This document shows, in pieces, positions 1 through 16,807 of a stretch of DNA of 17,205 nucleotides. The notes beneath the pieces were generated by a model. That model searched no databases and was not told the origin of the DNA. It saw nothing but the letters and a program-made list of their open reading frames with translations. Within the stretch, counting starts at the first letter, position 1. Each line of letters begins with the position of its first letter. Location: positions 1 to 17,205 of the forward strand of contig JAYGCN010000004.1 of assembly GCA_046583315.1 (NCBI GenBank), written 5' to 3'. Both the position numbers and the translations under genes were made by a program. Source of the DNA: Candidatus Hydrogenedentota bacterium (GTDB lineage Bacteria > Hydrogenedentota > Hydrogenedentia > Hydrogenedentales > GCA-2746185).

Positions 1-1161
1 GACAACGTCTATGCGGAATTCACCGCGACGGGAAACAGTCTCACCGGCGGTTACGTGTACTCGAATGGACTCGATTCCATTCCCTTCGACCAAATGCGCG
101 CGACGTGGGACCTGTACGGCGGGGCCGATCCCTTGACCGAAGTCGATCCCGTGCGCCTCGTCCTCAAATTCGCCGCGGCGGATCGTGCCGATATTTATTA
201 TCCACGCGGCAATACCTCGCAACCCGCGCGCGCCATCATGACGCGCCGCCACTACCAACTCGATCCCCTTCAAGTCTGGTGGATGCGCGAAGTCAACACC
301 GCGATCGTTCGCGACAATATTCCCGCCGATGGCATCACCCGTACACCCGATTTCACCTGGGTCATCGACAACCAGCCGCGACCGATATTGCAGAATGGCG
401 ATCCGGTATTACCCTTATATCAATACGAAATATGGAACACGGCTGTCAGTGCGAACGTGGATGATCATCGTGACGGACCGTATGGAAGCCCTGTAGCAAG
501 TGGATGGATCCCCGATCGATTCCGCATACCCACCGGATTGACAGAAAAGACTTGGTATCTGTTTGTCGTAATGGCCGTTGACGAATCCGGTAACGCCGAA
601 CAATGGCCCGCCAATCTGCCTATCGATGGTAGCAACCAAATCAACATCGAACAAAATATTACCTCCGATTCCAACTGGCGACGTTTTTATTATCCAGCCA
701 TCGAATCAGAAATCGATACGCGGGTGACTGCCGAGTTTTGGCACGATGTGAATTCGAACGGATTTATAGATGACCCTGAGCCGTACTTCGGGAATCAGAC
801 TATTATTCCGATGCCTGCCACTACGCCGCCAACCGTTAACGCACTGTTTACCGGAGAAGTTATATCGTCATTGGTTGTCGATACGGAAATCGATTGGACT
901 CTTTACGAGAACGGTGTGCAGATTGGTACGGGAACAGGCCCGACATTTCCATGGCCGAATTTGGGTGATCCGTCGCGCCTTCGACCATACAATTATGTAC
1001 TAACCGCCCAAGGTAGGACTGACGCAGGCGCGCCTTTCATCGTAGACCCGACCCCTGTGAACATTCGCTTCACGGTGGTGCCAGAAACGAACATTACTGA
1101 ATATCTGAAGAATAGTCAGACCGATGACGCGCAGCCCTTCAAGGACTTCGATCGAGAATAA
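1..1161 (+). CDS. C-terminal part of a large secreted/surface protein with Ig/FN3-like beta-sandwich modules (5'-truncated by the window)
   Basis: Frame is open from base 1 (DNVYAEFTATGNSLTGGYV...), so the GTG at 55 is internal. The sequence is acidic and rich in Pro/Thr/Trp. It has Ig-like strand motifs (FVVMAVDESGN; YVLTAQG...VDPTPVNIRFTV) and a DxNxNGxxD Ca-binding-like loop (WHDVNSNGFIDDPE). Stop TAA ends at 1161. Confidence 0.7.
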   Translation, partial: DNVYAEFTATGNSLTGGYVYSNGLDSIPFDQMRATWDLYGGADPLTEVDPVRLVLKFAAADRADIYYPRGNTSQPARAIMTRRHYQLDPLQVWWMREVNTAIVRDNIPADGITRTPDFTWVIDNQPRPILQNGDPVLPLYQYEIWNTAVSANVDDHRDGPYGSPVASGWIPDRFRIPTGLTEKTWYLFVVMAVDESGNAEQWPANLPIDGSNQINIEQNITSDSNWRRFYYPAIESEIDTRVTAEFWHDVNSNGFIDDPEPYFGNQTIIPMPATTPPTVNALFTGEVISSLVVDTEIDWTLYENGVQIGTGTGPTFPWPNLGDPSRLRPYNYVLTAQGRTDAGAPFIVDPTPVNIRFTVVPETNITEYLKNSQTDDAQPFKDFDRE

Positions 1162-1182: not shown

Positions 1183-1211
1183 TTGCATAATTCCGCATAT
1201 TTGTGTTTAAT
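1183..1211 (+). promoter_or_regulatory. Putative sigma70 promoter of the PEGA/FGE gene
   Basis: TTGCAT (1183-1188), 17 nt, TTTAAT (1206-1211) in an AT-rich gap. It overlaps the ORF-track GTG at 1203, which favours the ATG at 1293 as the start. Confidence 0.45.
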
Positions 1212-1292
1212 AGCATTAATCACGGCGTGAGGGTGTGCCTGACGGCGCGCGATGTACCATGGTGGGCACAAATCGGGAGTTGTGACACAGGT

Positions 1293-2675
1293 ATGAGGCG
1301 AAGACACGTCCATAGTATTACTCAATTGGCGGGAGCCTTTGTTGCCATTGGCTTCATCGTTCTGCTTTCCGACTGTTCATCGCCCGAGCCCGAGACCGCC
1401 ACGATCATCGTTATCTCAACACCCGCCGGCGCCAGAGTCATGGTTGACGGAACGCCCTATGGCACCACCCCGGTGACCATCCCGGATTTGGCGCTTGGCG
1501 AGCACTACGTCATTCTCCAGATAAAAGATCATCGTCGCCTGAACAAGCGCATCACGCTCAACGTTGCCGAAACGGTCGAATACAATCTCGACATGGAGCA
1601 CTTTTTCGGCGAGGTGAAATTTTCGACCACGCCACCCGGAGCCGATGTGACCATCATCAGCAAGAACGGCCCGGTGACTGTCGGACAGACCCCGCTCGAG
1701 CAATTCGAGCTGGACACCGGGAATTATACCTTCGAGATAAGCCTGGCCAATCACCATACCATCCAGGGAGAAATTATAATCGAAGAAGGCGGATATTACG
1801 TCCAGGATTTTCCGCTGGTAGCCATGGAGTCTCAGATTCAGCTGTTCAGCAGGCCGACCGATGGCGATATCTATATCAATGACGAATTACGCATCGAAAA
1901 AACACCGGCAAGGATTACCCTGCTTCCCGGCGAATATACCGTGGGCATCTACAAAATCGGGCACATGATTCATGAAGAAACGGTGACGCTGATACCCAAC
2001 GATATGCAACGTATCGAAGCGGTACTCAAACAAGGGAATATGCCTCTGGGTATGGTATTGATACCCGCTGGCGAATTTTTATTTGGCGATGACGACAAAT
2101 CGCCCGACGAGAAGCCTAAAATAAGTGTTACGCTGCCAGATTTCTATATGGACAAGTACGAAGTCACGAATCTCCAGTTTAAGGAGGTGTTTCCGGGCCA
2201 CAAGTATGAAGAAGGTCGCGACAACTACCCCGTGCAAAATGTATCCTGGAAGCAAGCGGACGAATATGCGCGCGCGGAAGGAAAGCGCCTGCCTACTGAG
2301 CAAGAATGGGAGAAAGCGGCGCGCGGCATTCAAGGCGGCGAATATCCGTGGGGTACCATATTCAAACCGGATTTCCTCAATTATCTTGGGCATTCCATTG
2401 CCGACAGTAAGAAAGTAGGCACCTACCGAAAAGGCGTATCCCGATACGGATGTTACGATATGGCCGGCAACGTCTACGAGTGGGTCGCAGACTGGTACAA
2501 CCCCTACCCCAACAACCCCGACGTACGCATCGACTACGGCACTGTATACAAAGTGTTACGTGGCGGTTCCTTCGCGAGCGACTCGTTTGAGGTGCGCAGT
2601 GCCAAGCGCCATTACAACAAGCCAGACGCCAAACGCGAAGACTACGGCTTCCGTTGTGCCATGGATGCCCATTAA
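1293..2675 (+). CDS. Exported PEGA-repeat + FGE-sulfatase (SUMF1/C-type-lectin fold) domain protein, probably non-catalytic
   Basis: From ATG 1293: basic N-terminus, then a hydrophobic stretch ending LLSDC. About three PEGA repeats (STPAGARVMVDG..GTTP; STTPPGADV; SRPTDGDIYIND..KTP). FGE motifs: FYMDKYEVTN, PVQNVSW, RLPTEQEWEKAARG, YDMAGNVYEW, RGGSF, GFRC. The ORF-track start at 1203 is less likely. Confidence 0.88.
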   Translation: MRRRHVHSITQLAGAFVAIGFIVLLSDCSSPEPETATIIVISTPAGARVMVDGTPYGTTPVTIPDLALGEHYVILQIKDHRRLNKRITLNVAETVEYNLDMEHFFGEVKFSTTPPGADVTIISKNGPVTVGQTPLEQFELDTGNYTFEISLANHHTIQGEIIIEEGGYYVQDFPLVAMESQIQLFSRPTDGDIYINDELRIEKTPARITLLPGEYTVGIYKIGHMIHEETVTLIPNDMQRIEAVLKQGNMPLGMVLIPAGEFLFGDDDKSPDEKPKISVTLPDFYMDKYEVTNLQFKEVFPGHKYEEGRDNYPVQNVSWKQADEYARAEGKRLPTEQEWEKAARGIQGGEYPWGTIFKPDFLNYLGHSIADSKKVGTYRKGVSRYGCYDMAGNVYEWVADWYNPYPNNPDVRIDYGTVYKVLRGGSFASDSFEVRSAKRHYNKPDAKREDYGFRCAMDAH

Positions 2676-2736: not shown

Positions 2737-2765
2737 TTGACATCCAATCTATGTTGTATTACAAT
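2737..2765 (+). promoter_or_regulatory. Sigma70 promoter P1 of the pilMN-O-P module
   Basis: TTGACA (2737-2742), 17 nt, TACAAT (2760-2765): 11 of 12 consensus bases with optimal spacing. Confidence 0.7.
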
Positions 2766-2905: not shown

Positions 2906-4945
2906 ATGGCTTTTTCAAAATCACGCGCTCCCAATCGCCTGGTCCTCGATATAGGTACCAGTGCCGTACGTCTGTGTGAACTATCCCAAACAAAGGCCGG
3001 ATTCCAGCTGTCCAAATATTATCAGCGCGAATTCAATATCGATCCCGCGATGGATGAGGCCGATAAGCAGGACAGGCGTGCCGAAGTGCTCGGTGCGCTA
3101 CTCAATGAAGCCAAAGTCCGATCCCGAAAAGCCATCGTTGCCGTTCCCGGGCAATCCGTGTTTACGCGCAACCGCCCATTGCCGCCCGTACCGGAATACA
3201 AAGTTACCCAGATAGTCCGCTACGAAATTCAACAACAGATTCCCTTTTCACTAAACGAGATCGCGTTGGACTATCAGGTGCTTGATCGTACCGAAGTCGG
3301 CGGATACGATGTCATGATGGCGGCCATCAAGGTCGATGTCGTCGAAAAACAGCTCGAGATACTCAGCCGAGTTAAACGAACGGTAAGCATAGTCGATGTT
3401 TCGCCCCTGGCTGCTTATAACTGGCTTACCCATACCGGCGATTTCGGCGAAGATGGACAGTGCATCGCTCTGGTCGATATGGGCGCAACCACCACCGATA
3501 TTGTCATTCAGAAAGACAATCAATTCAAATTTACCCGTAGTCTGCACGTGGGCGGGAACGACGTGACCTCAGCACTTGCCTCCGCGTTCAATATGCCTTT
3601 TGAAGAAGCCGAGCGACTCAAACGCGAAAAAGCGTTTGCGCCAACCGGAGATGCCAATCGCGATGGACGTGGCGGCGAAGTAACCGGTCGCGTGCTGGGT
3701 CGCTTGGTCGGAGAAATCAATCGTTCCTTCGCGTATTTTCGTTCACAGCCTGGTGGAGGACCCGTTACGCGTGTGATTATTACGGGCGGCGGTTCCTGCC
3801 TGCGCAACATCATCCCCTACCTGCAACGTCAATTGAACATCGAAGTACGCATCGCGCAACCTTTGGCCGGACTGGCCATTGGACCCGCCGCGAACGAGGC
3901 CAGCGAACACCCCGAACAGGCCTGCGTCGCACTCGGACTCGCATTGCGTGCTACACAGACCGTGCCTATCGAAATAAATCTGATTCCGCCACGCGTGAAA
4001 GAAGCCACCAAACGCAAAGAACAAATGGTTTATTGGGCGCTGACGTTCTTCGCGATTTTGATCATCATGGCATCCACCATACCGGCCACGGCGGACAAGA
4101 TAGACAAGACACAGGAACGCGTCAAGATACTCAAGAGCATACTGGGTAAATACGATCCGGCTCTCATTAATAATCCACAGGGGCGTTCTTCCTATCAAGA
4201 TGAATTCAATACCGTGTTGAATGATGTAAACAGTTACCGAACGGAAGTGGTCGATTTGGATACCATTCGCCGCGAACAACACTTTTGGGTAAAACAATTG
4301 CACATGATCAATGATGCACGTCCCCAGGGTATTGGCATCAGCTCGTTCCAGACCATCGTGCTCGGTGGCAAAGGCAATACGGGGCGAAAAGCCTATGAAA
4401 TAGCCAATCCCGATAAAGTAATCGATACCATTGAGAAGCCTGAAGCACCGAAACCTCAAGCCCAAAACGAGCCGACCGGTGGTATGAGTAGCTTTAGGGT
4501 TGATGTCTCAAAACTTAAATCCTCAAGCGGAGATATCCTGGCCTTTCCGGGCATTGCCGCTTCCACTTCGATTCTGGAGCCAAATGCCGTAGCCATTACG
4601 GGCTACGCCTACGATATACCGACCGTTCAAGAGTTTGAACGACGACTCAAAGAGACGGAAGGCGTGATCGTAAACGGTGTATATCTACACGTGAAAGATA
4701 TAGAAAAAGTTGATTTATCGGAACTGGATTCTGCCAATTTTGGGTCGTTGGAATCGACCGCACCCAAGAAAAAGACCGGTGGCGGCGGTAGCGACAAAGG
4801 GATCAGGATCAGTATCGACGCTTCAACTATCGCGCGCAGTTCCAGTTCATTCAATTCAGCTATAGCGAGTGGCATAGAAGTGTTTCGATTTGATATTGAA
4901 ATACAGTTCATGGGCGAAGCAATAAAATTTGACCAGAGTCAATAG
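2906..4945 (+). CDS. pilM: Type IV pilus assembly protein PilM fused to a PilN-like membrane/periplasmic domain
   Basis: The N-terminal ~350 aa are actin-like PilM (VLDIGT, YEIQQQIPF..IALDYQ, DVSPLA, VDMGATTT, GGNDVT, EINRSFAYF, ITGGGS, VALGLALR). This is followed directly by the PilN signature INLIP (~aa 357), a TM helix (MVYWALTFFAILIIMA), a coiled coil and a ferredoxin-like part (ITGYA...FERRL). Strong SD. Confidence 0.9.
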   Translation: MAFSKSRAPNRLVLDIGTSAVRLCELSQTKAGFQLSKYYQREFNIDPAMDEADKQDRRAEVLGALLNEAKVRSRKAIVAVPGQSVFTRNRPLPPVPEYKVTQIVRYEIQQQIPFSLNEIALDYQVLDRTEVGGYDVMMAAIKVDVVEKQLEILSRVKRTVSIVDVSPLAAYNWLTHTGDFGEDGQCIALVDMGATTTDIVIQKDNQFKFTRSLHVGGNDVTSALASAFNMPFEEAERLKREKAFAPTGDANRDGRGGEVTGRVLGRLVGEINRSFAYFRSQPGGGPVTRVIITGGGSCLRNIIPYLQRQLNIEVRIAQPLAGLAIGPAANEASEHPEQACVALGLALRATQTVPIEINLIPPRVKEATKRKEQMVYWALTFFAILIIMASTIPATADKIDKTQERVKILKSILGKYDPALINNPQGRSSYQDEFNTVLNDVNSYRTEVVDLDTIRREQHFWVKQLHMINDARPQGIGISSFQTIVLGGKGNTGRKAYEIANPDKVIDTIEKPEAPKPQAQNEPTGGMSSFRVDVSKLKSSSGDILAFPGIAASTSILEPNAVAITGYAYDIPTVQEFERRLKETEGVIVNGVYLHVKDIEKVDLSELDSANFGSLESTAPKKKTGGGGSDKGIRISIDASTIARSSSSFNSAIASGIEVFRFDIEIQFMGEAIKFDQSQ

Positions 4946-4974
4946 CTTGTCGGCATAGAAAGAACTAATATTAC

Positions 4975-5907
4975 ATGAAAAAAGGGATTATTATTATGGC
5001 CGTATTTTTTCTGGCCTCTTGTGCCGGAACTTACGCGGTATTCACCAAATACGTCTTGCCCATGCAGCAACAGCTTGCCGAACAGGAAAAAGTAGAAGCG
5101 GCGATTTCCAAAAAAATTCGTGAGCTCGAGGTGGAATTCGAGCGAACCGTTCCCGATGTCGTTATTCGTGCCCTGCAAGATGAAAAACAGCCTTGGGTAA
5201 ACGCTTCCAAGGCGCGCACCGTTTTCTTCAAGCTCGAAGAAGTGTCCGATATCGAAATTCCCGAAAACGCGATTCCGCGATTCTGGTATGAAGACAAATA
5301 CCCCGAGCTGGAAGACTCCTTATACGAAGCGGCAGGCGCGCGCGGTATTCTGTTGACCTCCGTCGATTTTGATGTGAAGACTCCCAATTTCTTCGGTTCA
5401 GGAACCAATCCCACCCGCGAAGAAATTCTCAAAGAAGTAAACAAATACAATTACGGCATTCAGATGACGAAATTCATTTTCGGGGCCAATCCGAGTACGG
5501 TGGACTCGGTAAATATTTGGCCCAAGAGAAGTGCCTACAACGGGCGCAGCGGAACGGTATACTACCGCACGACCGGATACAGGATTACGGTCATGTGGGA
5601 TGACCTGCTTCGTTTTCTGGAGAGGCTTGCCAGAAGCGATTACTATGTGACGGTGGACGCGATTAAAGTCACGAATAAAACACTGCGCGATTCCCGGAAT
5701 CCCGATCCCATGAGCGTAGAACTGATTCTTACCGAAGCCCAATTTGAGCCCCACACAGGCGCCATCGCCGGATTGGGTGCCGATGGAGCTGATGGATCTT
5801 CCGGTCTATTCAATATGGCATTTGGCGGTGACAATGCGGCAGCGGAAGCAGAGGAAGAATCTTCTGGAATCATGGGATTCCTCAAGAAACTTAATCCCTT
5901 CGACTAA
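4975..5907 (+). CDS. PilO/GspM-like alignment subcomplex protein
   Basis: N-terminal TM followed by a coiled coil (QQQLAEQEKVEAAISKKIRELE). PilO-like ferredoxin motif ITVMWDDLLRFLERLARSDYYVTVDAIKV. Lies directly after pilMN. Confidence 0.75.
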   Translation: MKKGIIIMAVFFLASCAGTYAVFTKYVLPMQQQLAEQEKVEAAISKKIRELEVEFERTVPDVVIRALQDEKQPWVNASKARTVFFKLEEVSDIEIPENAIPRFWYEDKYPELEDSLYEAAGARGILLTSVDFDVKTPNFFGSGTNPTREEILKEVNKYNYGIQMTKFIFGANPSTVDSVNIWPKRSAYNGRSGTVYYRTTGYRITVMWDDLLRFLERLARSDYYVTVDAIKVTNKTLRDSRNPDPMSVELILTEAQFEPHTGAIAGLGADGADGSSGLFNMAFGGDNAAAEAEEESSGIMGFLKKLNPFD

Positions 5908-5943
5908 TTTCTGGAAGCAGATCACACATAATTAGAAGGTACT

Positions 5944-6447
5944 ATGAACAAAATACGGAAAATAGCCGGCTGGTGCTGGGAGACCAAAGAGCGTATCGTT
6001 CTGGCGGTGATGGTAATCCTGCTTGGGTATCGCGTTTATTCACTGGTATATACACCGGAGAATAACGATCCCAATCGTATGCCGATCAAGCCGGGAGACC
6101 AGTATCAGGGAGACGTGCTAACTCCGCCGCTGATTCCGCCGCCCTACGACATGGATCCCGTAACCCGGCTCATCCGAAATCCACCCTTTAACTATACGAC
6201 CCCCAGGGGAGGCACGGACACCAGAGGTCCGGGCGCCGAAGACGCAGGTGAGATTCGGGTATTACGTATTGTGGAGGGTGCGGATGGCAGATACAAAGCT
6301 CGTATTACCACCGGCGCATCCAAGAAACTTATCCTGGAAGGCGAAAAATTTGAGAGTTACCAGTTGATGACCATCGACCCTGACACGGGTTGCTGTGAGA
6401 TCTATTCCGAGATCTTGAGCAAGCTAATCGAGGTCTGTATTGAGTAA
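5944..6447 (+). CDS. Membrane-anchored PilP/GspC-like protein
   Basis: TM segment (IVLAVMVILLGY), Pro-rich linker with RNPPF (cf. PilP RDPF), and a small beta domain (IRVLRIV..YKARI..LILEGEKFESYQLMTID) resembling the PilP/GspC HR fold. Lies between pilO and the secretin gene. Confidence 0.6.
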   Translation: MNKIRKIAGWCWETKERIVLAVMVILLGYRVYSLVYTPENNDPNRMPIKPGDQYQGDVLTPPLIPPPYDMDPVTRLIRNPPFNYTTPRGGTDTRGPGAEDAGEIRVLRIVEGADGRYKARITTGASKKLILEGEKFESYQLMTIDPDTGCCEIYSEILSKLIEVCIE

Positions 6448-6691
6448 AACTGATAATTCTGATTATATAAGGGGTCGAAAAACAAAAATTTATGAGAAAG
6501 TGTTTGATAGATTGCGATAAAGTGTATTAGACTAACGAGTTATTATACTGCATGCGGGTTGCACCTCGTTATCGGTTATCTATTTACAAACTTGAAATAG
6601 TAAAGAACAAATCAACTCTGTGAGCCGGATTTTCGGGTGAGTTGTTTATGTAACGTATCCAGGATAATTCCTGGCAGGAGGAAATAGTTCG

Positions 6692-9580
6692 ATGAACACC
6701 AGGCTGTCCCAGGTATCAACATCTTTTTGTTCGGCATTGATGCTCGTCTTCGCCCTGCAAATCATCGTTTCCCCTGATGCGCTCGCGCAAGATAACGAGG
6801 CTACCATCTCGCAAGCCGAAACACACTTTCGCGATGGGGTGCGTCTTTACAAGGAAGGTAACTTTCGCGAAGCACTCAATGAATTCAATCGCGTACTTGC
6901 ACTCGATTCCGACAATGCTGCTGCCAAGCAGTATAAAGCCGATACCGAGACGCAGCTTGTTCGTACCGAGTTGAAGGGCGCGACGACGACTTCTGGCGAA
7001 TACGAAATATTTGATCCCGATGCGCTTGAGGAATTGAGCAGCGCGACGATGACCGCAGAAGAGTACAAGATTCAAAGCGTGCGCGAGAATGTTGAGATGG
7101 GCGAAGACTATCTTGAGCATCAGATGTATCGGGAGGCCATCAACAAGTTCGAGCAAGTTCTTTTGACTGCACCGGACAACAAGCGTGCACAGGATGGTTT
7201 ACACAAGGCGGCGCTGGGATACGACGAGCAGCAAATAGTGGAATCTCAGAAAAGTCTTATCGAGCAGACCAAAGAAATTCGAAAAGGTATCCAGGACAAG
7301 AAACTCATGCCGCCCGGCGCAGGTGTTGATGGAATCAAATCGTTCCGTCTGTCAATCCCCACTATTGAGGAGCGTATAACTCCTATTGAAGAACGCGACA
7401 AAATAGAAGATATTCTGGACAGTGAAGTAGGTGTTGTCTTTGAGAATGTTCATCTTAAAGACTTGCTTGAAATACTTTCCGAGAACTACGACATCAACAT
7501 CATGGTTGATAATCGCGTCGTTCAGCCGCCCGTTTCGGAAGACGATACAGTTGCGGGCCGCGCGCCCGGAGCGCCACCCGCTCCAAGACCCACTAGCGGT
7601 GGCGGAGGCGGTTTTGGTGCCGGTGGTGGATTCGCCGGTATAGGCGGAGCTGGCGGAGCTGGTGGACAACAGGGCGATATCGGACCGGTGACTGACGGGA
7701 TGATTGACTACATCAATCTCAAAGACGTAACGCTTCGCCAGGCACTCAAAGCACTCTTGCGACCCCTTAACCTGGACTACTCGATCCAGCAGGGTTTTAT
7801 CTGGATCAGTACACCCGAAAAAATACGAACAGAATCATTTGACGATCTCGTTACCCGGTATTATGAACTGCGTAACGCTGGTGCCGAGACATTGTTCAAG
7901 CTGGTACTGGGCAATCCCAACACCAGCCAGCAGGGCGGTCAGGGTGGTCAGGGCGGTGGTGCTGGCGGTGGTGGCGGTGCAGGCGGCGGTGTCGGTGGCG
8001 GTGGCGGTGGTGCCGCAGCAGGCGGCGGCGCAGGCGGCGGTGCAGGCGGCGGTCAGGGCGGTCAGGGCGGTCAGGGTGGTCAAAACAACATCGTAGCAAT
8101 CGGAAACGTATCCGATTTGTTCTCAGGTGGATTTGACGATCAACTCGTCGGGGAATACCCGAATCCATTTGGTACCGGCGGCCAAGGCGGTCAAGGCGGC
8201 GGTGCTGGCCAGGGTGCTGGCGGCGGCGGCGTTGGAGGCGGCGGTATTGGCGGCGGCGCAGGCGGAATCGGCGGTGGAGCCGGCGGCGGAGCCGGTGGTC
8301 CGGGTGGTCAGAACAACTTCGGATATGGTCCCGGACTTGGGCCGTCCAGTGGTATTATTGGTGAGCCGCGAATCATGTACGTGTTGCGCAGCCTCGTGCC
8401 AGGCGTAATTGAGCCCATCACGGAAAAAGAACTTTCATTTATGTACTACAACCTTGTGAGCAATCAACTAATCGTCCACAATACACCGAACAATCACGAT
8501 ATTCTGGCAGAAAACCTAATTCACCTCGATGAAACGCCGCAGCAAGTGGCCATCGAAGCGAAATTCTTGACGATTGGTATCAATGATACCGAAAAGATTG
8601 GTTTCGACTGGACGACAAAATTCTCCGATGCCAATGATCGCGTGATTCCTCCTATAGTTCAGCAGCAAATATTATTGCCCGGTGGCATCGACGGCATCGA
8701 CGGCGGTGATGGTGGTGATGGTGGTGATGGTGGTGATGGTGGTGATGGCACAATCGGGATTTTCACTCCGCCGCCAACAATTGTTGATAGTAACGGGGAC
8801 GGTATCTTCGAAACCGTGCCCTTCGGCTTCAACCCCGATGCGTCACGCTACGGCAGCGCATTTTCACTGGCCAATCTGGGTGCCGCGCTTTCTCCCGGAG
8901 CAGCCGGCAATATTCTTGGTGAATTCACGATGTTGTCGACTCTGGATGGAGATCGATTGCAGTTGACTATCGATATGATCGATACGCTGGCGGAAAGTGA
9001 ACTGATGAGTGCGCCGCGCGTGACGACCATGAACCAGAAGCCAGCGGCGGTGGCAGACTTCGTGACGGAATACTACCGCACATCGCAGGATAACGAATCG
9101 AACGTAAATACCAATGGTCAAGGAGATACCGGCGGCGTGATTACCTCTACGACCCAGTCAACCTATACGCCGTTTCAGGCCGGTATTGCCTTCTCGGTAA
9201 CCCCACAAATATCCGGCAATCAGGTTCGCATGTGGTTGAACCCCTCCGTCGTGGAGATTGTCGGTGAGAGTAGTTTCACTCAAGCTCAGATCGTGGGTGG
9301 CCAGGTATTTCCGACTGAAATTGTGTTCCCAAAAATTGCAACCAAATCCGTTTGGACCAACGTCATTGTGCTGGATGGGGATACCGTTGTCCTGGGTGGT
9401 CTCGTGAGCGATACCTCTTCCCGCGAAGAAACCGGCGTTCCCTATCTGCAAGACATCCCGGTTATCGGGTTCTTCTTCCGCGGCAAATCGAGAACTGTGC
9501 GCCAGTCCAGCCTGCTCATTTTCGTGACGCCAACCATTATCGACCGGACCGGATCGCGCTACTTTGAGTCCAGTCTATAG
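6692..9580 (+). CDS. pilQ: Outer-membrane secretin (PilQ/GspD family) with N-terminal TPRs and Gly-rich insertions
   Basis: SD AGGAGG at 6676-6681. Signal peptide ending ALA-Q, two TPR-like motifs, STN/N0-like segments (FENVHLKDLL; LKDVTLRQALKALL), and the N3 end (NQLIVHNT...LDETPQQVAIEAKFL). Secretin core motifs: SAPRVTTMNQ, GIAFSVTPQI, DGDTVVLGGL, GVPYLQDIPVIGFFFR, LLIFVTPTII. Confidence 0.93.
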   Translation: MNTRLSQVSTSFCSALMLVFALQIIVSPDALAQDNEATISQAETHFRDGVRLYKEGNFREALNEFNRVLALDSDNAAAKQYKADTETQLVRTELKGATTTSGEYEIFDPDALEELSSATMTAEEYKIQSVRENVEMGEDYLEHQMYREAINKFEQVLLTAPDNKRAQDGLHKAALGYDEQQIVESQKSLIEQTKEIRKGIQDKKLMPPGAGVDGIKSFRLSIPTIEERITPIEERDKIEDILDSEVGVVFENVHLKDLLEILSENYDINIMVDNRVVQPPVSEDDTVAGRAPGAPPAPRPTSGGGGGFGAGGGFAGIGGAGGAGGQQGDIGPVTDGMIDYINLKDVTLRQALKALLRPLNLDYSIQQGFIWISTPEKIRTESFDDLVTRYYELRNAGAETLFKLVLGNPNTSQQGGQGGQGGGAGGGGGAGGGVGGGGGGAAAGGGAGGGAGGGQGGQGGQGGQNNIVAIGNVSDLFSGGFDDQLVGEYPNPFGTGGQGGQGGGAGQGAGGGGVGGGGIGGGAGGIGGGAGGGAGGPGGQNNFGYGPGLGPSSGIIGEPRIMYVLRSLVPGVIEPITEKELSFMYYNLVSNQLIVHNTPNNHDILAENLIHLDETPQQVAIEAKFLTIGINDTEKIGFDWTTKFSDANDRVIPPIVQQQILLPGGIDGIDGGDGGDGGDGGDGGDGTIGIFTPPPTIVDSNGDGIFETVPFGFNPDASRYGSAFSLANLGAALSPGAAGNILGEFTMLSTLDGDRLQLTIDMIDTLAESELMSAPRVTTMNQKPAAVADFVTEYYRTSQDNESNVNTNGQGDTGGVITSTTQSTYTPFQAGIAFSVTPQISGNQVRMWLNPSVVEIVGESSFTQAQIVGGQVFPTEIVFPKIATKSVWTNVIVLDGDTVVLGGLVSDTSSREETGVPYLQDIPVIGFFFRGKSRTVRQSSLLIFVTPTIIDRTGSRYFESSL
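7931..8315 (+). repeat. Two related Gly-rich low-complexity blocks (GGQ/GGA repeats) inside the secretin
   Basis: 9-bp CAGGGYGGT units at 7931-7957 and GGTCAGGGY units at 8051-8077. Both protein blocks begin GGQGGQGGGAG and end GGQNN. Confidence 0.85.
8684..8746 (+). repeat. In-frame 9-bp tandem repeats encoding (GID)2(GGD)5
   Basis: GGCATCGAC x2 (8684-8701), then GGCGGTGAT, then four exact GGTGGTGAT copies (8711-8746). Confidence 0.92.
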
Positions 9581-9653: not shown

Positions 9654-10934
9654 ATGCTCTTGATTCATGCCCTATATAATCTGTTGCTCACGCTCCTGGT
9701 GATTCCCGCTGCAGCGTATCTCGCTATCCATCCCAAACATAGACCGCTTCTTCATCGTTTTCGGCCCTTTATAGCGCCCACACTAAAGGCCGGGGCGATA
9801 TGGGTGCATGCCGCCAGCCTCGGCGAGGTCAATACAGCGCGGCCCATCGTGACCGCGCTCAGGGAGCGCTACCCGGAAGCCTCCATTGTGCTGACCACCT
9901 CCACCGTCACAGGAATGGCACAGGCCAACGATTTGCCAGACGTTGACGGTATCGCCTGGTTCCCATTCGATCACCCATGGAGTGTGGCCGGTTTTCTGGA
10001 ACGTCTCAAGCCAGCCCATCTCATACTCATCGAAACCGAGTTGTGGCCGAACGTGTTGTTCCACGCCCGGAAGCGAACGACAGTCGTCTCCCTGGTGAAC
10101 GGTCGGCTCAGCGAGAAACACTTCGGCGGCTATCTCCGGGCAGCACCGTTGCTGCGACCTGCCATTGAATCGATACAGCTTGCGGGTATGCAAAGCGCGC
10201 TCGACGCGGAACGCATTCAACGCCTGGGCCTTCGTGCGGACGCTGTGCACGTTCTCGGGAACACGAAATTTGACGGAGCGATTACGCAGGTCGACTCAGC
10301 GATCACGAATTCACTGCGCGAGCATTGTGGTATTGAGTCCACAGCATCAGTGCTCATTTTTGGGAGCACGCGGCCCGGTGACGAAGCACTGGCTGTAGAA
10401 TGCTGGGAGTATCTGCGCGAGCGCGTAACAGGTTTGCGACTCATCATCGCCCCTAGACACATACAACGTACACAAGAGATAGTCGGACAGCTCGAAAGAT
10501 ATTCACTGCTTCTGCGCAGTACCACGAAAGCACCCCAGACGGAGCACGTGGAGGCTACATCGGATGAGCGCCCTATCATCCTCTTGGATACCGTAGGCGA
10601 GTTAGTCCACTTTTATGCCTTGGCTGATGTCGCCGTCGTTGGAGGCAGCTTTTCTGATGATGTTCAGGGGCATAATCCCATCGAACCTGCGGCCCTGGGT
10701 GTGGCAACCGTGTTTGGCCCGTGTATGAAAAATTTCCATGTCCCGGCAGCCATGCTGGTGGAAGCCGAAGGGGCCACCCAGGTTTCGTGTGCCGACGATC
10801 TCCCCGCGCAGCTCCAGGCACTCTTTGTTGACGATGATTGCCGAAACGTGATGGGTCAACACGGACAGATTGCTGTACAACAAAACACAGGGGCCATCGA
10901 AGGCTTTCTGAAACACTTCGACGCACTTCGATGA
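9654..10934 (+). CDS. waaA: 3-deoxy-D-manno-octulosonic acid (Kdo) transferase, GT30
   Basis: N-terminal membrane anchor and WaaA motifs WVHAASLGE, TTSTVTG, PFD, ETELWPN, VNGRLS, GNTKFD, GST, IIAPRH, LDTVGEL, VGGS, GHNPIEPA, FGP.M.NF. Length (426 aa) is typical. Confidence 0.95.
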   Translation: MLLIHALYNLLLTLLVIPAAAYLAIHPKHRPLLHRFRPFIAPTLKAGAIWVHAASLGEVNTARPIVTALRERYPEASIVLTTSTVTGMAQANDLPDVDGIAWFPFDHPWSVAGFLERLKPAHLILIETELWPNVLFHARKRTTVVSLVNGRLSEKHFGGYLRAAPLLRPAIESIQLAGMQSALDAERIQRLGLRADAVHVLGNTKFDGAITQVDSAITNSLREHCGIESTASVLIFGSTRPGDEALAVECWEYLRERVTGLRLIIAPRHIQRTQEIVGQLERYSLLLRSTTKAPQTEHVEATSDERPIILLDTVGELVHFYALADVAVVGGSFSDDVQGHNPIEPAALGVATVFGPCMKNFHVPAAMLVEAEGATQVSCADDLPAQLQALFVDDDCRNVMGQHGQIAVQQNTGAIEGFLKHFDALR

Positions 10935-11025: not shown

Positions 11026-13053
11026 CTAGTTCTTCAGGTGAATCTGCGCGGTATCTGCATTCAATACAACCACTGCACAACCATCGTCCACACTCACGTG
11101 GCCGTCCCACATCACGCCTTCGCCGTAGGCGTGGAAGTAATAGGTGTTTGGTGCCAATTCACCCGTGACGGTACCGCCGGGGGCTTCCTGGCCGCACACG
11201 ATGTCGTCTGCAACGGTAGCGGTATCAATCGTGCCAATGCCTCGACCGTTGAGGACGACGTCGATGGCACCATAGGCGAGGTCTTCACTGATAAAGCTGA
11301 CTTTACCTTTCGCGGGTGCAGTCAATCGAACAACACCGCTATTGGAACTGGTATTGGCATCGAATGGAGGTGGGAAATTCACGTGTGTGGAGGCTATCTC
11401 CAATTGATCGAAGAATACAGCGTTGGCACGAATTTCCGGCTTCACAATGAAGAACGGATCCGTATGCACATCAAGATACCAACCCGTTGTATAACTGGCC
11501 TCGAGCAGTAATGCGGCTTCATCGTTGGTCAATATTTTGATGATGTTCTCTACTCCTGGAATGAAGACGCCGGACGCGTCTACTGCCGGTTCATAGCGTG
11601 GGCGCGCATTAAAGTGAGGTACCAGGCCAAGGTCAATGAGAATCGGCCCCTCTTCGCCCGGTCGGCCGGTATGCACATGAATGGCAGCATCACCAATGCC
11701 CGCAGGCGGCTCCACATCATAGAGGAGCGCGAAGCTCTGATACTCATCGTTGTACACAACCTCAAGTGTATTTGGCGAACCCGTTTGGGGTACTGTATCG
11801 AATCCGTTCAGCACAAATGCTGAATCGAAGAATCGAATACCCCCTTGCGGATGCGAGGATACAATCGGAACGGAATACAAATCGAGATCGTTCGTGATAT
11901 GAGCGTCGGCGTACCAATGTCGACCGACCATTAGATGGACAAGTTCTTCGGAGAAACCAATTATGTTTCCTGAAACATCTTCGATAAAGGGATGTGAAAT
12001 CCCCGGTTCAAAATTCAGATTTGGCGCGAAATTGTCGACTGGACCGAGGGGGAGTCCGTTGCCGGGATCGTAGTTCCAAAAGATATCATCTACGTTGTCA
12101 TTCAAATCGCTACTGGGTCTTCCCCAATGGATGTGCGCCGCAGATGTCTCTGGATTCGGTTGCAGCATGCCATCCTGATCGAAAAAGGTGACCTCAGACA
12201 CATCGTGAGAAAATCCGGCACCGTAAAATAGGAGCGTGAATGTGGGAGGGACCAAGCCATCGGTCTGTGCCGCAATCTGTAGAAAACCCATGTCCAACGA
12301 TCCGAATAATGGTTCTTTGAATACGCTCTCAGCCGTATTAGGGAGATTTGGGCCGTTATAACGGACGTTTTCCTGGTCATCAATAACCAATACGTAACTA
12401 CGCAGGTTTTGCACAGAGCCGCCGAATTTCGGTTCGCCAAACGAAGGATAGCCACGCGACATAGCAACGCCAAGTCGTGAACTTGCGATACGAAATGAGT
12501 ATTGACCTACCCCACCGGCGAATTGGCTTTGAAAGCGCAGATAATAGTTTCCGGTGTAGGGGGCAAACCAAATGGCACGCAGATTGGAATCCGGGTCTGG
12601 AATTACTCCGGGATAAGGAAGCTCTACTGTCGTAGGGATTGTAAGGCTACCAGTCGAATCCAGTATCGAGTACAACAAGGATGAGTCGCCTTGACCACTT
12701 TGGTTATCTTGTGGGAAGTTAGCATGAAAGCCATAGGTATTCCCACCAACAAGCGACACCCGAAAGAAGTCAACATCGCCCGGATAATTGATGAATCGTT
12801 CATAGTCGACCTTCTCTTGGCCTTCGAAATCTTTTCCGCCAATAATTGCCTGGCTGGCAACGATCTGTGTTGCATGGGCTTGCAAGTTACCGTCGAGATC
12901 CACCACGCCAAGTAGTAATTCCTCGTTGTGGGGCTTGCTGCCCGAACTGCCGCCACCGCTGCATCCGGAAGAAATGACCGCTGCGCATAACACCAACGCC
13001 CAAGGTCGAAGAAGTTTAGTGATACTGCCACCATTGAAAGAGGCGAGATTCAT
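11026..13053 (-). CDS. Lipoprotein with a PPC-like beta domain and two CHRD-like domains
   Basis: Lipoprotein signal ...LVLCAAVISSG-C followed by a SGGGSSGS linker. PPC-like segment (INYPGDVDFFRVSL...APYTGNYYLR...GQYSFRI). CHRD-type motifs occur twice: SAAHIHWG...WYADAHIT...GGIR and AAIHVHTGRPGEEGPILIDL...GWYLDVHT...PEIRA. ATG 13053 has GGAG 6 nt upstream; the alternative start is 13074. Confidence 0.75.
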   Translation of the reverse strand: MNLASFNGGSITKLLRPWALVLCAAVISSGCSGGGSSGSKPHNEELLLGVVDLDGNLQAHATQIVASQAIIGGKDFEGQEKVDYERFINYPGDVDFFRVSLVGGNTYGFHANFPQDNQSGQGDSSLLYSILDSTGSLTIPTTVELPYPGVIPDPDSNLRAIWFAPYTGNYYLRFQSQFAGGVGQYSFRIASSRLGVAMSRGYPSFGEPKFGGSVQNLRSYVLVIDDQENVRYNGPNLPNTAESVFKEPLFGSLDMGFLQIAAQTDGLVPPTFTLLFYGAGFSHDVSEVTFFDQDGMLQPNPETSAAHIHWGRPSSDLNDNVDDIFWNYDPGNGLPLGPVDNFAPNLNFEPGISHPFIEDVSGNIIGFSEELVHLMVGRHWYADAHITNDLDLYSVPIVSSHPQGGIRFFDSAFVLNGFDTVPQTGSPNTLEVVYNDEYQSFALLYDVEPPAGIGDAAIHVHTGRPGEEGPILIDLGLVPHFNARPRYEPAVDASGVFIPGVENIIKILTNDEAALLLEASYTTGWYLDVHTDPFFIVKPEIRANAVFFDQLEIASTHVNFPPPFDANTSSNSGVVRLTAPAKGKVSFISEDLAYGAIDVVLNGRGIGTIDTATVADDIVCGQEAPGGTVTGELAPNTYYFHAYGEGVMWDGHVSVDDGCAVVVLNADTAQIHLKN

Positions 13054-13060
13054 AGTACGC

Positions 13061-13099
13061 TCCAAGTGTGTCATCTTTTGTAATCCAAATGTGTCATCT
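13061..13099. repeat. 16-bp direct repeat pair at the 5' end of the CHRD lipoprotein gene
   Basis: TCCAAGTGTGTCATCT (13061-13076) and TCCAAATGTGTCATCT (13084-13099) are identical at 15 of 16 positions, with a 23-bp period. Confidence 0.85.
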
Positions 13100-13404: not shown

Positions 13405-14355
13405 ATGTCACTATTCCGTCGCACATCGGACGTAAATCGCTCGAACATACTGGCTTATGCACTCATCGCGCCCGCTCTGGCTGTTTTACTGCCCTTCGCC
13501 ATTTCCCCCTTCTTTTATGCAATCTATCTGAGTCTTTTTGAGTTTGAGGCGAATACATCGGAATATATAGGTGGTGTGCATTATGTCGCCGCGATTCAAA
13601 GCGAAGGATTCTGGAACAGCGTGCGCGTCACGATCTATTTTGCGGTCGGTACCGTGATACCCACTCTCCTGATCAGCACCATACTTGCGCTTGTTCTAAG
13701 TCACATCACTCGGCTACAATCGTTCCTGCGAATCGTCTATTTTTTGCCTTTCATCACCTCCGTCGTTGCCGCAGCGATGATTTGGCGTGCGATGTTCGAG
13801 CCGATTAACGGCCCCATCACGCAGCTCTTTATGCAATTGGGCCTGGAGCGCCAGGATTGGCTTCTTGAGCCGCGCGGCGTGTTGCATATTCTCACGGGCG
13901 GTGCAATTGACCCTACCTTCGGGCCGAGTCTGGCGTTGTGTTGTGTCATGGTCTTTGAAATCTGGCGCAGCATCGGGTTCATGGTCGTCATTCTGCTTGC
14001 CGCGCTCACGCAACGATCAAAGGGCCTCGAAGAAGCCGCAACGCTCGAAGGGGCCAATCGCACACAGCTCGCATGGCATGTGATTCTGCCCGGAATTTCG
14101 CCTACCCTGATGTTTTTGACGGTGGTCGCGACAATTCAGTCGTTTCAGGCCTTCAACGGATTTTTCGCGTTAACGGGTGATGGTCGCGGCCCGCTTGATA
14201 CGACGCAGAATATGACGGTGTACATTTACACGCAGTTTTACGAGTACGGACACATCGGCTACGGTTCCGCGAATGCTGTTCTGCTGAGCCTGGCCATCAT
14301 GGCGTTCACGGTTGTTCAGTTGCGTCTCACCGGGCAAAGGATGCAGAGTCGATGA
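13405..14355 (+). CDS. Carbohydrate ABC transporter permease (CUT1, UgpA/MalF-like)
   Basis: Multiple TM helices. Motifs FLRIVYFLPFITSVVAAAMIW, W..IGF.MV.LLAAL, EAA loop LEEAATLEGA, ITLP-like VILPGISPT, and GYGSA. Confidence 0.92.
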   Translation: MSLFRRTSDVNRSNILAYALIAPALAVLLPFAISPFFYAIYLSLFEFEANTSEYIGGVHYVAAIQSEGFWNSVRVTIYFAVGTVIPTLLISTILALVLSHITRLQSFLRIVYFLPFITSVVAAAMIWRAMFEPINGPITQLFMQLGLERQDWLLEPRGVLHILTGGAIDPTFGPSLALCCVMVFEIWRSIGFMVVILLAALTQRSKGLEEAATLEGANRTQLAWHVILPGISPTLMFLTVVATIQSFQAFNGFFALTGDGRGPLDTTQNMTVYIYTQFYEYGHIGYGSANAVLLSLAIMAFTVVQLRLTGQRMQSR

Positions 14356-15167
14356 ACTGGCGAAACGTGGTCACATACGGATTGTTGGCCGTGGGGGCGC
14401 TTCTGGCACTCTACCCTTTCGCGTGGATGCTTGGCACGTCACTGATGACGCTGCAAGAATCGACCTCGGCTTCGTTGAGCCTGATTCCGGATGAGCCGCA
14501 ATGGCAGAATTATCCCGATGCGATGTCGTCGGCCCCCTTTGCTCGCTATTTCGGAAACACCTTTGCCATCGCCATCACAATTTCCTTGATGACGATGATT
14601 ACGGCAGTGATGGCTGGCTATGCTTTTGCGCGCTTGCACTTTGTCGGGCGGCGCGTATTGTTCGCTACTATCATTGCGACGATGATGGTTCCATTTGAGG
14701 CATTGATCATTCCCAACTACGTTCTGATTACCAAATTGGAGTGGTACGATACCTATCAGGCACTCATCATTCCCTGGTGTGCGAATGCGTTTTCCATATT
14801 CCTGATGCGCCAGGCCTATGCCTCCACACCTTCGGAGTATTACGACGCGGCGGTTATCGACGGATGCGGCCACATTCGATTTCTGCTCTTCATTGCGACA
14901 CCGATCGTGCGCCCCACGGTGTTAATCGTGGGACTCTTCGCGTTTTTGGCCAGTTACAATGCGTTGCTATGGCCGATGATCGTCACGGGTTCCGAGTCGA
15001 TGCACATGATTCAAGTGGGCCTTGCGCTGTTCGCGACCGATGCCGGCGTGCGCACCAATTTACTCATGGCCGCGTCCGTCGTTGTAATCGTGCCGGTACT
15101 GCTTCTATACTTTGCTACACAGCGGACCTTTGTGGATGCCGCGACGAATTCCGGATTGAAGGGATAG
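14352..15167 (+). CDS. Carbohydrate ABC transporter permease (CUT1, UgpE/MalG-like)
   Basis: ATGA overlap with the previous gene. Motifs PFAWML.TS, WQNY, AGYAFARLHF.GR, TMMVP, IFLMRQ, EAA loop YYDAAVIDGC, WP, Q+.FV. Confidence 0.93.
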   Translation: MNWRNVVTYGLLAVGALLALYPFAWMLGTSLMTLQESTSASLSLIPDEPQWQNYPDAMSSAPFARYFGNTFAIAITISLMTMITAVMAGYAFARLHFVGRRVLFATIIATMMVPFEALIIPNYVLITKLEWYDTYQALIIPWCANAFSIFLMRQAYASTPSEYYDAAVIDGCGHIRFLLFIATPIVRPTVLIVGLFAFLASYNALLWPMIVTGSESMHMIQVGLALFATDAGVRTNLLMAASVVVIVPVLLLYFATQRTFVDAATNSGLKG

Positions 15168-15179
15168 GAAAGGGCGAAG

Positions 15180-16508
15180 ATGCCTGGACGTGTTTTGCTC
15201 AGCGTGTATCGATGGACAGTACCCGCGGTTCTTGTAGCCATGATTGTGTCGTGTTCACCGTCTGGCACAGGCTCGTCGGAGAAGGGCTCTGATTCGCGCT
15301 CCTTCAGGCCGCTTGAGGCAGACACGGCAATCTTCTGGGACCGTCAGACGTCTGATTCAGCGGATGAATTGGCAGCGATTGTTGATGAATACAATGCCTC
15401 ACACGAAGGCGTTCCGATCAAAGCGGTTTCCACGGGAAACTACGGCGATATTTACAAAAAAGTGGTTGCCAGTACGCGCGCGGGAGTGTTGCCCGCCATG
15501 GCCGTCGCCTATGAAAACATGACGGCTGAGTACATGCGGCAAGGCGCGGTGAAATCGCTGGACGACTACATTGCTAATCCCGAAACGGGTTTGTCGGAAG
15601 AAGAGTTGAACGACTTTTTCCCCGCCATGCTTGACACGAATCGATTCGCGCAGTTTGATGGGCAGACCCTTTCGTTTCCCTACACCAAAAGCGTTCTCGT
15701 CATGTACTACAATCTGGATGTGATGCGGGCAGCGGGTCTTGATGCGCCGCCCACTACGTGGGAAGAGTTCGTCGAACAATGCCGCGTCATCAAACAGAAA
15801 ACGGGCAAATTCGGTATCGCTCTGGATGTGGATTGCTCGACCATCAGCGGGATTATTTTCAGCATGGGCGGAGAAATTCTTGGTGCCGGTGAAACGTTGT
15901 ACGATTCACCCGCGTCGATCCGAACGTTCGAATTGATTGAGACGCTCATGCGAGAAAAACTGGCGTACCAGATCCCGCCGCGTACGTTTAATGATGAGAC
16001 TTCGTTCGGAAACGACGAGATCGCGTTCATCCTGAGAACGAGCGCGCAACGACCGTACTTGAAGAATCTTATTCCTGATAGCAACACATGGGGGATCGCT
16101 GCGATTCCGCAGGCCGACCCCGCCGATCCACACACGGCCCTCTTCGGCGGGAACGTCACACTGTTCCAGACGACACCCGAACAACAGGCGAGCGCATGGG
16201 GTTTCATGAAATATTTCACCAGTCCGGAAACGACCGCGCGCTGGGCCCTGGCGACGGGTTATTTACCGGTGCGTCGATCGGCTGCTGACGATCCTGCGCT
16301 ACAGGCCTTCTGGGCGGAATGGCCCAGCAACAAGACCGCATTCGATTGTCTGGAGTTCGCAAAACCGGAGCCGAACATTCTGGCCTGGCAGGAGATCCGA
16401 TCCCTTGTAGAAAAAGCGGAGACGGCGGTGATAGCGGGAATGAAAAGCGGACGCGAGGCGGCTGAGGATTTGAAAAGGGATGCAGACGCGCTAATCAAGA
16501 AACAGTGA
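15180..16508 (+). CDS. ABC transporter substrate-binding lipoprotein (SBP family 1, UgpB-like)
   Basis: Signal peptide ending MIVS-C. Motifs GNYGDIYKK, PYTKSVLVMYYNLD, PPTTWEE, AWGFMKYFTSPE, WALATGYLPVR. Follows two CUT1 permeases. Confidence 0.9.
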   Translation: MPGRVLLSVYRWTVPAVLVAMIVSCSPSGTGSSEKGSDSRSFRPLEADTAIFWDRQTSDSADELAAIVDEYNASHEGVPIKAVSTGNYGDIYKKVVASTRAGVLPAMAVAYENMTAEYMRQGAVKSLDDYIANPETGLSEEELNDFFPAMLDTNRFAQFDGQTLSFPYTKSVLVMYYNLDVMRAAGLDAPPTTWEEFVEQCRVIKQKTGKFGIALDVDCSTISGIIFSMGGEILGAGETLYDSPASIRTFELIETLMREKLAYQIPPRTFNDETSFGNDEIAFILRTSAQRPYLKNLIPDSNTWGIAAIPQADPADPHTALFGGNVTLFQTTPEQQASAWGFMKYFTSPETTARWALATGYLPVRRSAADDPALQAFWAEWPSNKTAFDCLEFAKPEPNILAWQEIRSLVEKAETAVIAGMKSGREAAEDLKRDADALIKKQ

Positions 16509-16522
16509 TAGGGCAGCGCAAC

Positions 16523-16744
16523 TTAGGTCTGGTCGTGTTCTTCCGCAAAATCGCCCAGCGCTTCTTCGATCTGTTGCTCGTGTTTGCGCTTGAGAAACTC
16601 AGAATCCGATTTACGACGCATCATGTTTCGGCGATCCCCGTCTATGGAAGTATCGCGCTGTCGTCGATTGCTGGAGCCGCGTCGATCCGGCTGCAGATCG
16701 CCATTGGAATCTTTATAGTAGCCCTCTGGAACTGGATTTGACAC
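16523..16744 (-). CDS. Small hydrophilic protein (73 aa) with DRR/NRR repeats
   Basis: GTG at 16744 is preceded by GAGGGG 5 nt upstream and by its own promoter. Sequence: MSNPVPEGYYKDSNGDLQPDRRGSSNRRQRDTSIDGDRRNMMRRKSD...EEHDQT. Confidence 0.7.
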   Translation of the reverse strand: MSNPVPEGYYKDSNGDLQPDRRGSSNRRQRDTSIDGDRRNMMRRKSDSEFLKRKHEQQIEEALGDFAEEHDQT

Positions 16745-16778
16745 GATATCCCCTCTTGATAGCGTTTTCTCTGAACCA

Positions 16779-16807
16779 AGTATACTTTCAATCTCGAAAT
16801 GCGTCAA
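16779..16807 (-). promoter_or_regulatory. Sigma70 promoter of the small DRR-repeat gene
   Basis: Minus strand TTGACG (16807-16802), 17 nt, TATACT (16784-16779). The TTG that the ORF track uses as a start is the -35 box. Confidence 0.7.

Follow-up and report, generated by a model that had tools for sequence, protein, structure and literature searches.

The stretch of DNA studied here, called the window below, is 17,205 nucleotides long and represents an entire contig (C117; JAYGCN010000004.1) of the 4.65-Mb, 355-contig genome GCA_046583315.1 of a Candidatus Hydrogenedentota bacterium. Four co-oriented genes in pilMNOPQ order lie on its forward strand, as an earlier reading made from the sequence alone (the sequence-only reading) had reported: MN, encoding a PilM-PilN fusion (2906-4945, 679 amino acids (aa)), O (4975-5907, 310 aa), P (5944-6447, 167 aa) and Q, encoding a secretin (6692-9580, 962 aa). 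We propose, with a probability of about two in three, that MN-O-P-Q forms the pore and the envelope-spanning scaffold of a retractile type IV filament, with the genes of its motors and pilins lying upstream. A retractile pilus is favoured over a secretion system because the ATPase PilT belongs to the upstream block and because the PilM domain of MN keeps its nucleotide-site residues. Named relatives of the first gene belong to Ca. Hydrogenedentota (58% identity). The three sequencing runs that hold more than half of the words of the stretch are marine or seawater metagenomes of two studies, which indicates a marine origin.

Conservation and linkage of the locus

The contig breaks not far upstream of the four genes, and its 5' end falls inside another gene of the same locus, named Y. 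The sequence-only reading had found no ATPase, platform protein, pilin or prepilin peptidase in the window and had concluded that they must be encoded elsewhere. The first statement is true, yet the window is a whole contig that starts in the middle of the locus, and the ATPases, the platform protein and the pilins are missing from it because contig breaks cut off the upstream block. The second holds for the prepilin peptidase, of which the genome has one clear copy, on contig C278, and not for the other parts, which in relatives are encoded directly upstream. For the source genome the same arrangement is suggested by three contigs: the end of C62 carries PilB1-PilT-PilB2-PilC-G-H-I and the N-terminus of J, C238 carries the C-terminus of J and the N-terminus of K, and the window (C117) opens inside Y, an order that is colinear with the closest well-assembled relative.

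The survey of the gene neighbourhood and the search for PilT, which had been proposed as checks, revealed a recurrent block. The MN gene is present in 123 of 135 Hydrogenedentota genomes (85 of the 86 good ones), and 118 of the 135 have an orthologue of the PilT on C62. Both genes occur in 109 genomes and share a contig in 36; in 35 of these the two are on one strand, with pilT 18.7-25.1 kb upstream. The order of the block in relatives is pilB-pilT-pilB-pilC, the pilin genes G-H-I-J, the gene of a giant pilin, K, then Y, a gene for a protein with PEGA and FGE-sulfatase-like domains (PEGA/FGE) and finally MN-O-P-Q. When ten relatives were compared over ~24-40 kb, eight had the genes in a single co-oriented block whose last members are MN-O-P(-Q)-waaA; in G016 and G017 the upstream part is absent at that place. 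Another 27 linked genomes, read over the 20 kb before MN, show the order (PilB2-PilC)-G-H-I-J-K-Y-PEGA/FGE, with H, I and K in 27/27, J and Y in 26/27, G in 25/27 (two of the stretches begin after G) and FGE in 24/27. Four genomes carry the locus in two separate halves, each of them intact.

The PilM-PilN fusion

MN is composed of a PilM domain (residues 1-352; Pfam PilM_2 at 14-349, E 4e-48), an INLIPP motif, a single transmembrane (TM) helix at 374-392, a coiled coil and a periplasmic PilN-type domain. The TM helix is found in 87/87 aligned homologues, and the motif stands just before it in 84 of them. In the AlphaFold model (mean predicted local distance difference test, pLDDT, 84) an actin-fold domain is followed by a long helix and then by a periplasmic domain of helix-strand-strand-helix-strand-strand arrangement with two disordered Gly/Ser-rich loops. 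The fusion is real, since a contig from a different run covers 2965-6544 without gaps and differs by 16 substitutions; together with the phylum-wide presence of the fused gene, this contig rules out an assembly artefact.

The C-terminal half of MN was compared with the product of the phylum's stand-alone pilN, a gene lying between canonical pilM and pilO that is labelled by position and motif and has no Pfam match; hhalign gave 95.7% (E 1e-8, 119 columns), and three controls gave 0.3-0.4%. Pfam PilN itself matches MN below cut-off only (E 0.19), and PDB sequence and profile searches with the C-terminal half returned nothing significant. The PilN of type IVa pili (T4aP) is thus present in fused form, as hhalign and topology indicate.

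Family scores, fold searches and intact nucleotide-site residues identify the N-terminal part as PilM and not as GspL, its counterpart in type II secretion systems (T2SS). Among NCBIfam models the best match is the Amuc_1101 family, with a score of 259 over residues 12-474 (cut-off 650), followed by pilM TIGR01175 with 179.5 (cut-off 133), and GspL reaches 11.9. The fold searches used the full-length protein, and their results bear on the PilM part and not on the periplasmic domain: PilM structures take the first ten places in Foldseek (E 4e-29 to 4e-26), FtsA and MreB come next, GspL is absent among the matches listed, and the best hit of a wide fold search is Thermus PilM-PilN (2ych; Z 36.7, root-mean-square deviation (rmsd) 2.4, 325 residues). 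All 87 homologues have D15, G17, D191, G193, G294 and G295 unchanged; we take these residues to represent the actin-fold motifs for phosphate and adenosine. Judging from family scores, fold matches and these residues, the PilM domain does not have the degenerate actin fold of GspL, appears to retain the nucleotide site of T4aP PilM and may bind ATP.

The partner proteins O and P and the secretin

O is a bitopic protein in the position of PilO/GspM. It has no Pfam match, and its profile found only Myxococcus PilO, at E 0.11; T2SSM_b is weakly matched by 6/37 members of the O family. In hhalign comparisons with the phylum's canonical proteins O reached 31% against PilO and 54% against PilN, the latter over the TM helix and coiled coil. 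In the Atlas structure search it matched the Amuc_1100 family (TM-score 0.49, above the naming bar), with PilO/T2SSM clusters below the bar. Because hhalign to canonical PilO gave only 31%, its identity is based on the Atlas match and on position, and O may be called PilO-like by predicted fold and position, with a weak resemblance in sequence. A lipobox-like LASC stretch in O was discarded, being present in 2/37 members only and not conserved.

P consists of an amphipathic N-terminus, a TM helix at 18-36, a Pro-rich linker and a beta domain at 100-167, without a PDZ domain. None of its 18 homologues has a lipobox, which rules out a lipoprotein such as the PilP of T4aP, and none gave a match in Pfam scans; PDB sequence and profile searches with O and P gave nothing significant. 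The predicted domain 100-167 is closest to the homology region of GspC (GspC-HR; Z 9.7, rmsd 1.9, 61 aligned) and then to PilP structures (Z 8.3, with rmsd 2.3 and 65 aligned, 8.2 and 7.7), with unrelated rows at about 5. The fold therefore fits PilP, and the membrane anchor is that of the T2SS protein GspC.

Q has a signal peptide, N-terminal TPRs (Pfam TPR at 44-87), a STN/N0-like region (weak STN at 341-373), long Gly-rich inserts and a C-terminal secretin domain (768-951). AMIN is missing among its ten Pfam matches, and Q thus differs from the AMIN-bearing PilQ-type secretin of T4aP. The MshL, Amuc_1098, GspD and PilQ models score 117-126 bits on Q, all below cut-off (PilQ TIGR02515, 117 vs 284; Amuc_1098 family, 126 vs 750); the best of ten Q-type secretins reaches E 3e-42 on the Amuc_1098 family, also below cut-off. 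The Gly-rich loops differ in length among relatives, and contigs of other runs carry 9-base in-frame insertions in them, at 8182 and 8683. In one relative (G041, L092) the secretin appears as two open reading frames (ORFs) of 547 and 493 aa, where a real split and a sequencing error were not distinguished. A 391-aa ORF of the source genome (G000 C172:1391-2563) contains several repeats like residues 236-393 of Q, the STN/N0-like part, and no secretin domain.

These results agree with what the sequence-only reading had seen in the four proteins, namely M and N in one polypeptide, a P anchored by a TM helix instead of a lipobox, and TPRs in Q in place of recognisable AMIN domains. Its view that a T2SS-like topology has been built from PilM-like sequence is likewise borne out by a single-chain MN with a PilM domain.

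Motors and pilins of the upstream block

PilT scores 468 bits with TIGR01420 (cut-off 319). The two extension ATPases, B1 and B2, favour PilB over GspE (626 vs 587 and 573 vs 568), carry the MshEN cyclic di-GMP motif above cut-off and have intact Walker A, Asp, Walker B and His boxes; the use of two extension motors is known from A. baylyi (PMC8213720). The platform protein matches Myxococcus PilC with 432 and GspF with 421, both below cut-off.

The G pilin has a mature length of 220-305 aa. Its N-terminal helix has PilA structures as best matches. A DPWG motif (29/34 sequences) and a conserved acidic C-terminal end, GGGDDINNWD, are presumably GspG-like and are also visible in the genome's own GspG. 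Pfam T2SSG matches 5/34 G pilins (best E 2e-5), and TIGR01710 reaches 48 against a cut-off of 89, at the N-terminus only.

K is far larger: counted from the first start codon, 37 ORFs range from 1,809 to 3,338 aa. It lacks Glu+5, ends at a 'VYER' strand and has PilX_N and LTD matches. Its N-terminus resembles Verru_Chthon cassette protein A (TIGR02600; E 1.5e-10, 40 bits vs cut-off 332), as does its C-terminus in 6/37 cases (best E 1e-3); H, I and J gave no match to Verru_Chthon cassette proteins B-D at E 1e-8. In G108 (L086) K is in six pieces, and real breaks were not distinguished from sequencing errors.

Y is represented in the window by its C-terminal 386 aa (1-1161, forward strand), the end of a large secreted protein truncated by the contig start. 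Its relatives measure ~960-2,630 aa, carry TIG and beta-helix domains and finish with a conserved last domain, a variable linker and a conserved tail of ~10 residues, (D/E)QPIKxFxR. In T4aP the last ~10 residues of PilY1 are described as completing the PilK sheet, and GspK as having its own strand (PMC13533445). The tail of Y and the 'VYER' end of a K without Glu+5 fit the PilK-PilY1 arrangement of that description, and from position and tail Y is a candidate PilY1-like tip adhesin. Apart from the domains mentioned (LTD, TIG and beta-helix), Pfam identified no glycan-binding domain in K or Y. Repeats like those of the N-terminal part of Y are also found in a 5'-truncated 1,851-aa ORF elsewhere in the genome (G000 C7:1723-7275, reverse strand).

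A third filament system in the genome

The genome also has a canonical T2SS on C62 (above cut-off for GspE, 660, and GspD, 379, and including GspL and a PDZ-bearing GspC), directly followed by the PilB1-PilT-PilB2-PilC block, as well as a canonical pilM-N-O-P-Q on C5 and a PilB-PilT pair on C128. As a consequence, MN-O-P-Q is to be counted as a third system, one that has motors of its own. Since a stand-alone pilM is common beside the fused one (57/61 sampled genomes), the phylum appears to keep two alignment modules.

In all, the genome gives 9 secretin-domain matches and, above cut-off, 16 ATPases of the T2SSE family. Among the former are a 226-aa secretin-like ORF and a tandem pair of short secretins (354 and 364 aa); extra secretin and ATPase loci are G000 C65:4183-6335, C259:3696-4373, C52:1275-3581, C76 and C256. 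A further type IV filament locus (G000 C11:33805-39670) has a single ATPase gene beside two platform genes and four that resemble pilin genes, with no secretin nearby. Pilins with an 'LLPALxRARE' N-terminus, which we assume to be typical of the DUF1559/H-X9-DG pilins of the Planctomycetes-Verrucomicrobia-Chlamydiae (PVC) group, are scattered over G000 C77, C91, C180, C245, C303, C320 and C11; they are possible clients of the MN-O-P-Q machine.

Proposed working of the machine and rival explanations

From gene content, order, folds, motifs and conservation, we infer how the machine would be assembled and retracted, how Y would dock on K and what role would follow. PilD, encoded on C278, would process the prepilins, and the two PilB ATPases with their cyclic di-GMP motif would, together with PilC, polymerise the large GspG-like major pilin. 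The fibre would grow under an H-I-J-K tip, with a K subunit of 1,800-3,300 aa; Y would dock on K in the manner of PilY1, by way of the conserved tail at its C-terminus. Within MN, the presumably ATP-binding PilM domain would keep the motors in place. MN-O-P would form the link across the periplasm to the secretin, and retraction of the fibre would be the task of PilT. Such a machine would most likely help the cell to attach to particles and surfaces or to capture them.

Several observations weigh against this proposal. The best fold match of P is GspC-HR, Q passes no secretin family cut-off, both PilB scores are below cut-off with B2 nearly tying with GspE, and the G pilin has the DPWG motif, the GspG-like acidic end and the few T2SSG matches reported above. 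A PilY1 Pfam match was missing in the two full-length Y forms scanned. The genome has several PilT-like ATPases, and the PilT of the block could serve another pilus in trans. Of the 36 same-contig genomes one is rearranged, and 7 more genomes are apparently split, a number that may be too low because the rule for calling a split sees only breaks with a known free flank (the remaining 66 of the 109 genomes are not judgeable). No overlaps were found between the contig ends of C62, C238 and C117, whose join is not physically bridged, and we found no cultured member and no imaging or expression data.

The T2SS-like traits could belong to a PilT-containing secretion machine, in which a short GspG-type endopilus pushes folded proteins, such as Y and others, through the secretin and PilT recycles the piston. 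Such a machine would amount to the T2SS-like view of the sequence-only reading, extended by a motor for retraction. Besides the motifs of G, this would suit the GspC-like anchored P, the GspL-like single-chain topology, the secretin without AMIN, the large secreted protein of the locus and the position of the block behind a canonical T2SS operon. T2SS is described, however, as a T4aP derivative that arose by loss of PilT, with GspL as a fusion of M and N (PMC10191384), and here the nucleotide site of PilM is intact; moreover, a complete canonical T2SS is already in the genome, and a K of 2,000-3,000 aa suits a displayed tip better than a piston. We regard this explanation as unlikely, and similarly doubtful is a retraction-driven importer, whose tip (K, Y or orphan PVC-type pilins) would bind polymers or nutrients that PilT pulls through the secretin to the periplasm. 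Import has been loosely proposed for the homologous MUL2 of Akkermansia, and MUL1 and MUL2 are described in mucin transport and processing (PMC13174399); retention in 85/86 good genomes, the FGE-sulfatase-like gene inside the locus and a carbohydrate ABC transporter downstream would be in keeping with it. The same source, however, assigns MUL2 to attachment, as likely, and not to transport, no glycan-binding domain was identified by Pfam in K or Y, and the ABC genes are missing at that position in G016, G017 and L032.

An orphan module was rejected in view of the linkage in 35/36 same-contig cases, the colinear contig pieces and the recurrent upstream block. In its particular form of a scaffold that borrows another motor, the upstream block being a mere neighbour in other species, this idea draws on the lack of a physical C62-C238-C117 bridge, on a promoter-like site before MN and on the halves lying apart in 8 genomes. 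J, K and Y are nevertheless spread over the three contigs in pieces that are consecutive and colinear, the linked cases show a near-constant distance and the split halves stay intact, and we consider such a scaffold very improbable. The retractile filament with its own motors accordingly remains our preferred explanation. A bolder extension of it, for which we would claim only a slim chance, is a PVC-type filament class standing between T4aP and T2SS, a PilT-retracted pseudopilin fibre whose tip pilin, of 200-350 kDa, would capture extracellular polymers or nutrients to be drawn in through the secretin, like a T2SS in reverse, and would be ancestral to the MUL2 uptake module of Akkermansia.

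Neighbouring genes in the window

The gene directly upstream of MN (1203-2675, forward strand) encodes a protein with three PEGA domains and an FGE-sulfatase-like domain, probably an envelope accessory factor; it stays beside MN in the split loci of G016 and G017. Between this gene and MN lies a sigma70-like promoter match (2737-2765, forward strand; 11/12), a consensus match only: the scan found 9 sites against 7.5 expected by chance, and this is the sole site above 9/12. The conserved downstream flank is waaA (9654-10934, forward strand), encoding a Kdo transferase, which is probably outside the machine. It is followed on the reverse strand by the gene of a 682-aa exported-looking protein (11026-13074) with a weak CHRD match (E 0.007), which has no paralogue in the genome and is absent at that place in G024, G033 and G036. 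The carbohydrate-type ABC transporter (13405-16508, forward strand) comprises two permeases and a binding protein, without an ATPase, and its genes are kept downstream of waaA in several relatives, though not in G016, G017 or L032. A 94-aa ORF without family match (16523-16807, reverse strand) has a counterpart at the same place in G024 (44%). The contig end, 17056-17205, matches C312:283-432 at 96.7%, either as a duplicate or as contamination (the genome is 5.4% contaminated).

Comparison with known systems

The machine is closest to a retractile T4aP in its presumed working. With the T4aP of Pseudomonas, Neisseria, Myxococcus and Thermus it shares PilT, PilB-like ATPases with MshEN, a PilC-like platform protein, a PilM with a nucleotide site, the M-N-O-P-Q order and four minor pilins with a large secreted protein after them. 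Unlike them, it has a fused PilM-PilN, a membrane-anchored P, a secretin with TPRs and Gly-rich inserts and no AMIN, a large GspG-like major pilin, a giant K, a Y without PilY1 match and two PilB per operon; going by the gene products, it would fall outside T4aP on PilP lipidation and on the AMIN secretin. The single-chain L-type topology, the TM-anchored HR-fold protein, the GspG-like motifs and the G-H-I-J-K order are instead those of T2SS, from which the presence of PilT, the complete PilM domain in place of GspL, a P without PDZ and a secretin below the GspD cut-off would separate it. A natural PilM-PilN fusion within a T4aP system is known in C. difficile (PMC6916266), described as a monoderm without PilP or secretin, and the very large K-type pilin resembles Verru_Chthon cassette protein A (TIGR02600) weakly at both ends.

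The nearest relatives of MN outside the phylum are Amuc_1101-like fusions. A profile search over 1.84 billion representatives returned, beyond the phylum's own proteins, mostly sequences of 500-700 aa; 109 of the 124 outside relatives are 500 aa or longer, and a TM helix follows the PilM domain in 101 of the 109. When 82 were scanned, 71 reached E 1e-75 or better on the Amuc_1101 family, whose cut-off is exceeded by 2; of 20 outside clusters looked up, one carries an organism name, Ca. Auribacterota. In a FastTree phylogeny of the PilM domain, which is supportive only (85 rows, no proteobacterial references, outgroups chosen by similarity to MN with every second unlabelled outgroup row), the Hydrogenedentota MN proteins form one clade (support 100) apart from canonical PilMs and adjoining the Amuc_1101-like clade (support 89).

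The Amuc_1098-1102 cluster of Akkermansia is called pili-like in the literature, where a PilQ secretin is assigned to it (PMC5332112, PMC10688800), and within MUL2 Amuc_1101 is reported as a PilM protein likely involved in attachment and conserved in Verrucomicrobiales (PMC13174399). The layout is shared: a long PilM-like protein, an Amuc_1100-like second, a small third protein and the secretin last. The suggestion of the sequence-only reading that similar architectures exist in PVC-type phyla is thereby confirmed, and its concern that the architecture might already be characterised was justified in part, by the Amuc_1098-1101 layout and the C. difficile fusion. Its idea of a lineage-specific machine stands as regards separation from the genome's canonical T2SS (C62) and pilMNOPQ (C5) and fails as regards the layout, which is known in Akkermansia. 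The main text of the type IV filament survey of Denise et al. makes no mention of PVC, Planctomycetes or Verrucomicrobia. In a literature search, with subscription journals outside its coverage, no description of the Hydrogenedentota locus was found, and a complete locus mixing T4aP traits (PilT, PilM) with T2SS-like ones (GspG-like pilin, anchored P) is apparently undescribed in print.

Taken alone, the four-gene module is a member of a known PVC-type architecture, and the added value lies in the linked, complete parts list. Amuc_1100 and its neighbours have been much studied, and the portions of the literature examined do not name the partner ATPases, platform protein and pilins; the Hydrogenedentota block provides a concrete parts list for the Akkermansia-type 'pili-like' module and likely shows its drivers. 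Because the block is homologous, Amuc_1100-type proteins are suggested to be PilO-like inner-membrane scaffolds and not pilus subunits. The mixture of traits makes the locus a useful reference for the divergence of secretion systems and pili, and its near-universal retention suggests a core lifestyle function in this uncultured phylum. The differences from MUL2 are equally clear: MN and Q score far below the Akkermansia family cut-offs, PEGA/FGE and Y lie upstream, and Amuc_1102 (Mul2A) did not appear in NCBIfam scans of the genes nearby, no direct search for it having been made. Moreover, unlike MUL2 as it is described in the sources cited, the Hydrogenedentota module is linked to two PilB, PilT, PilC and five pilins.

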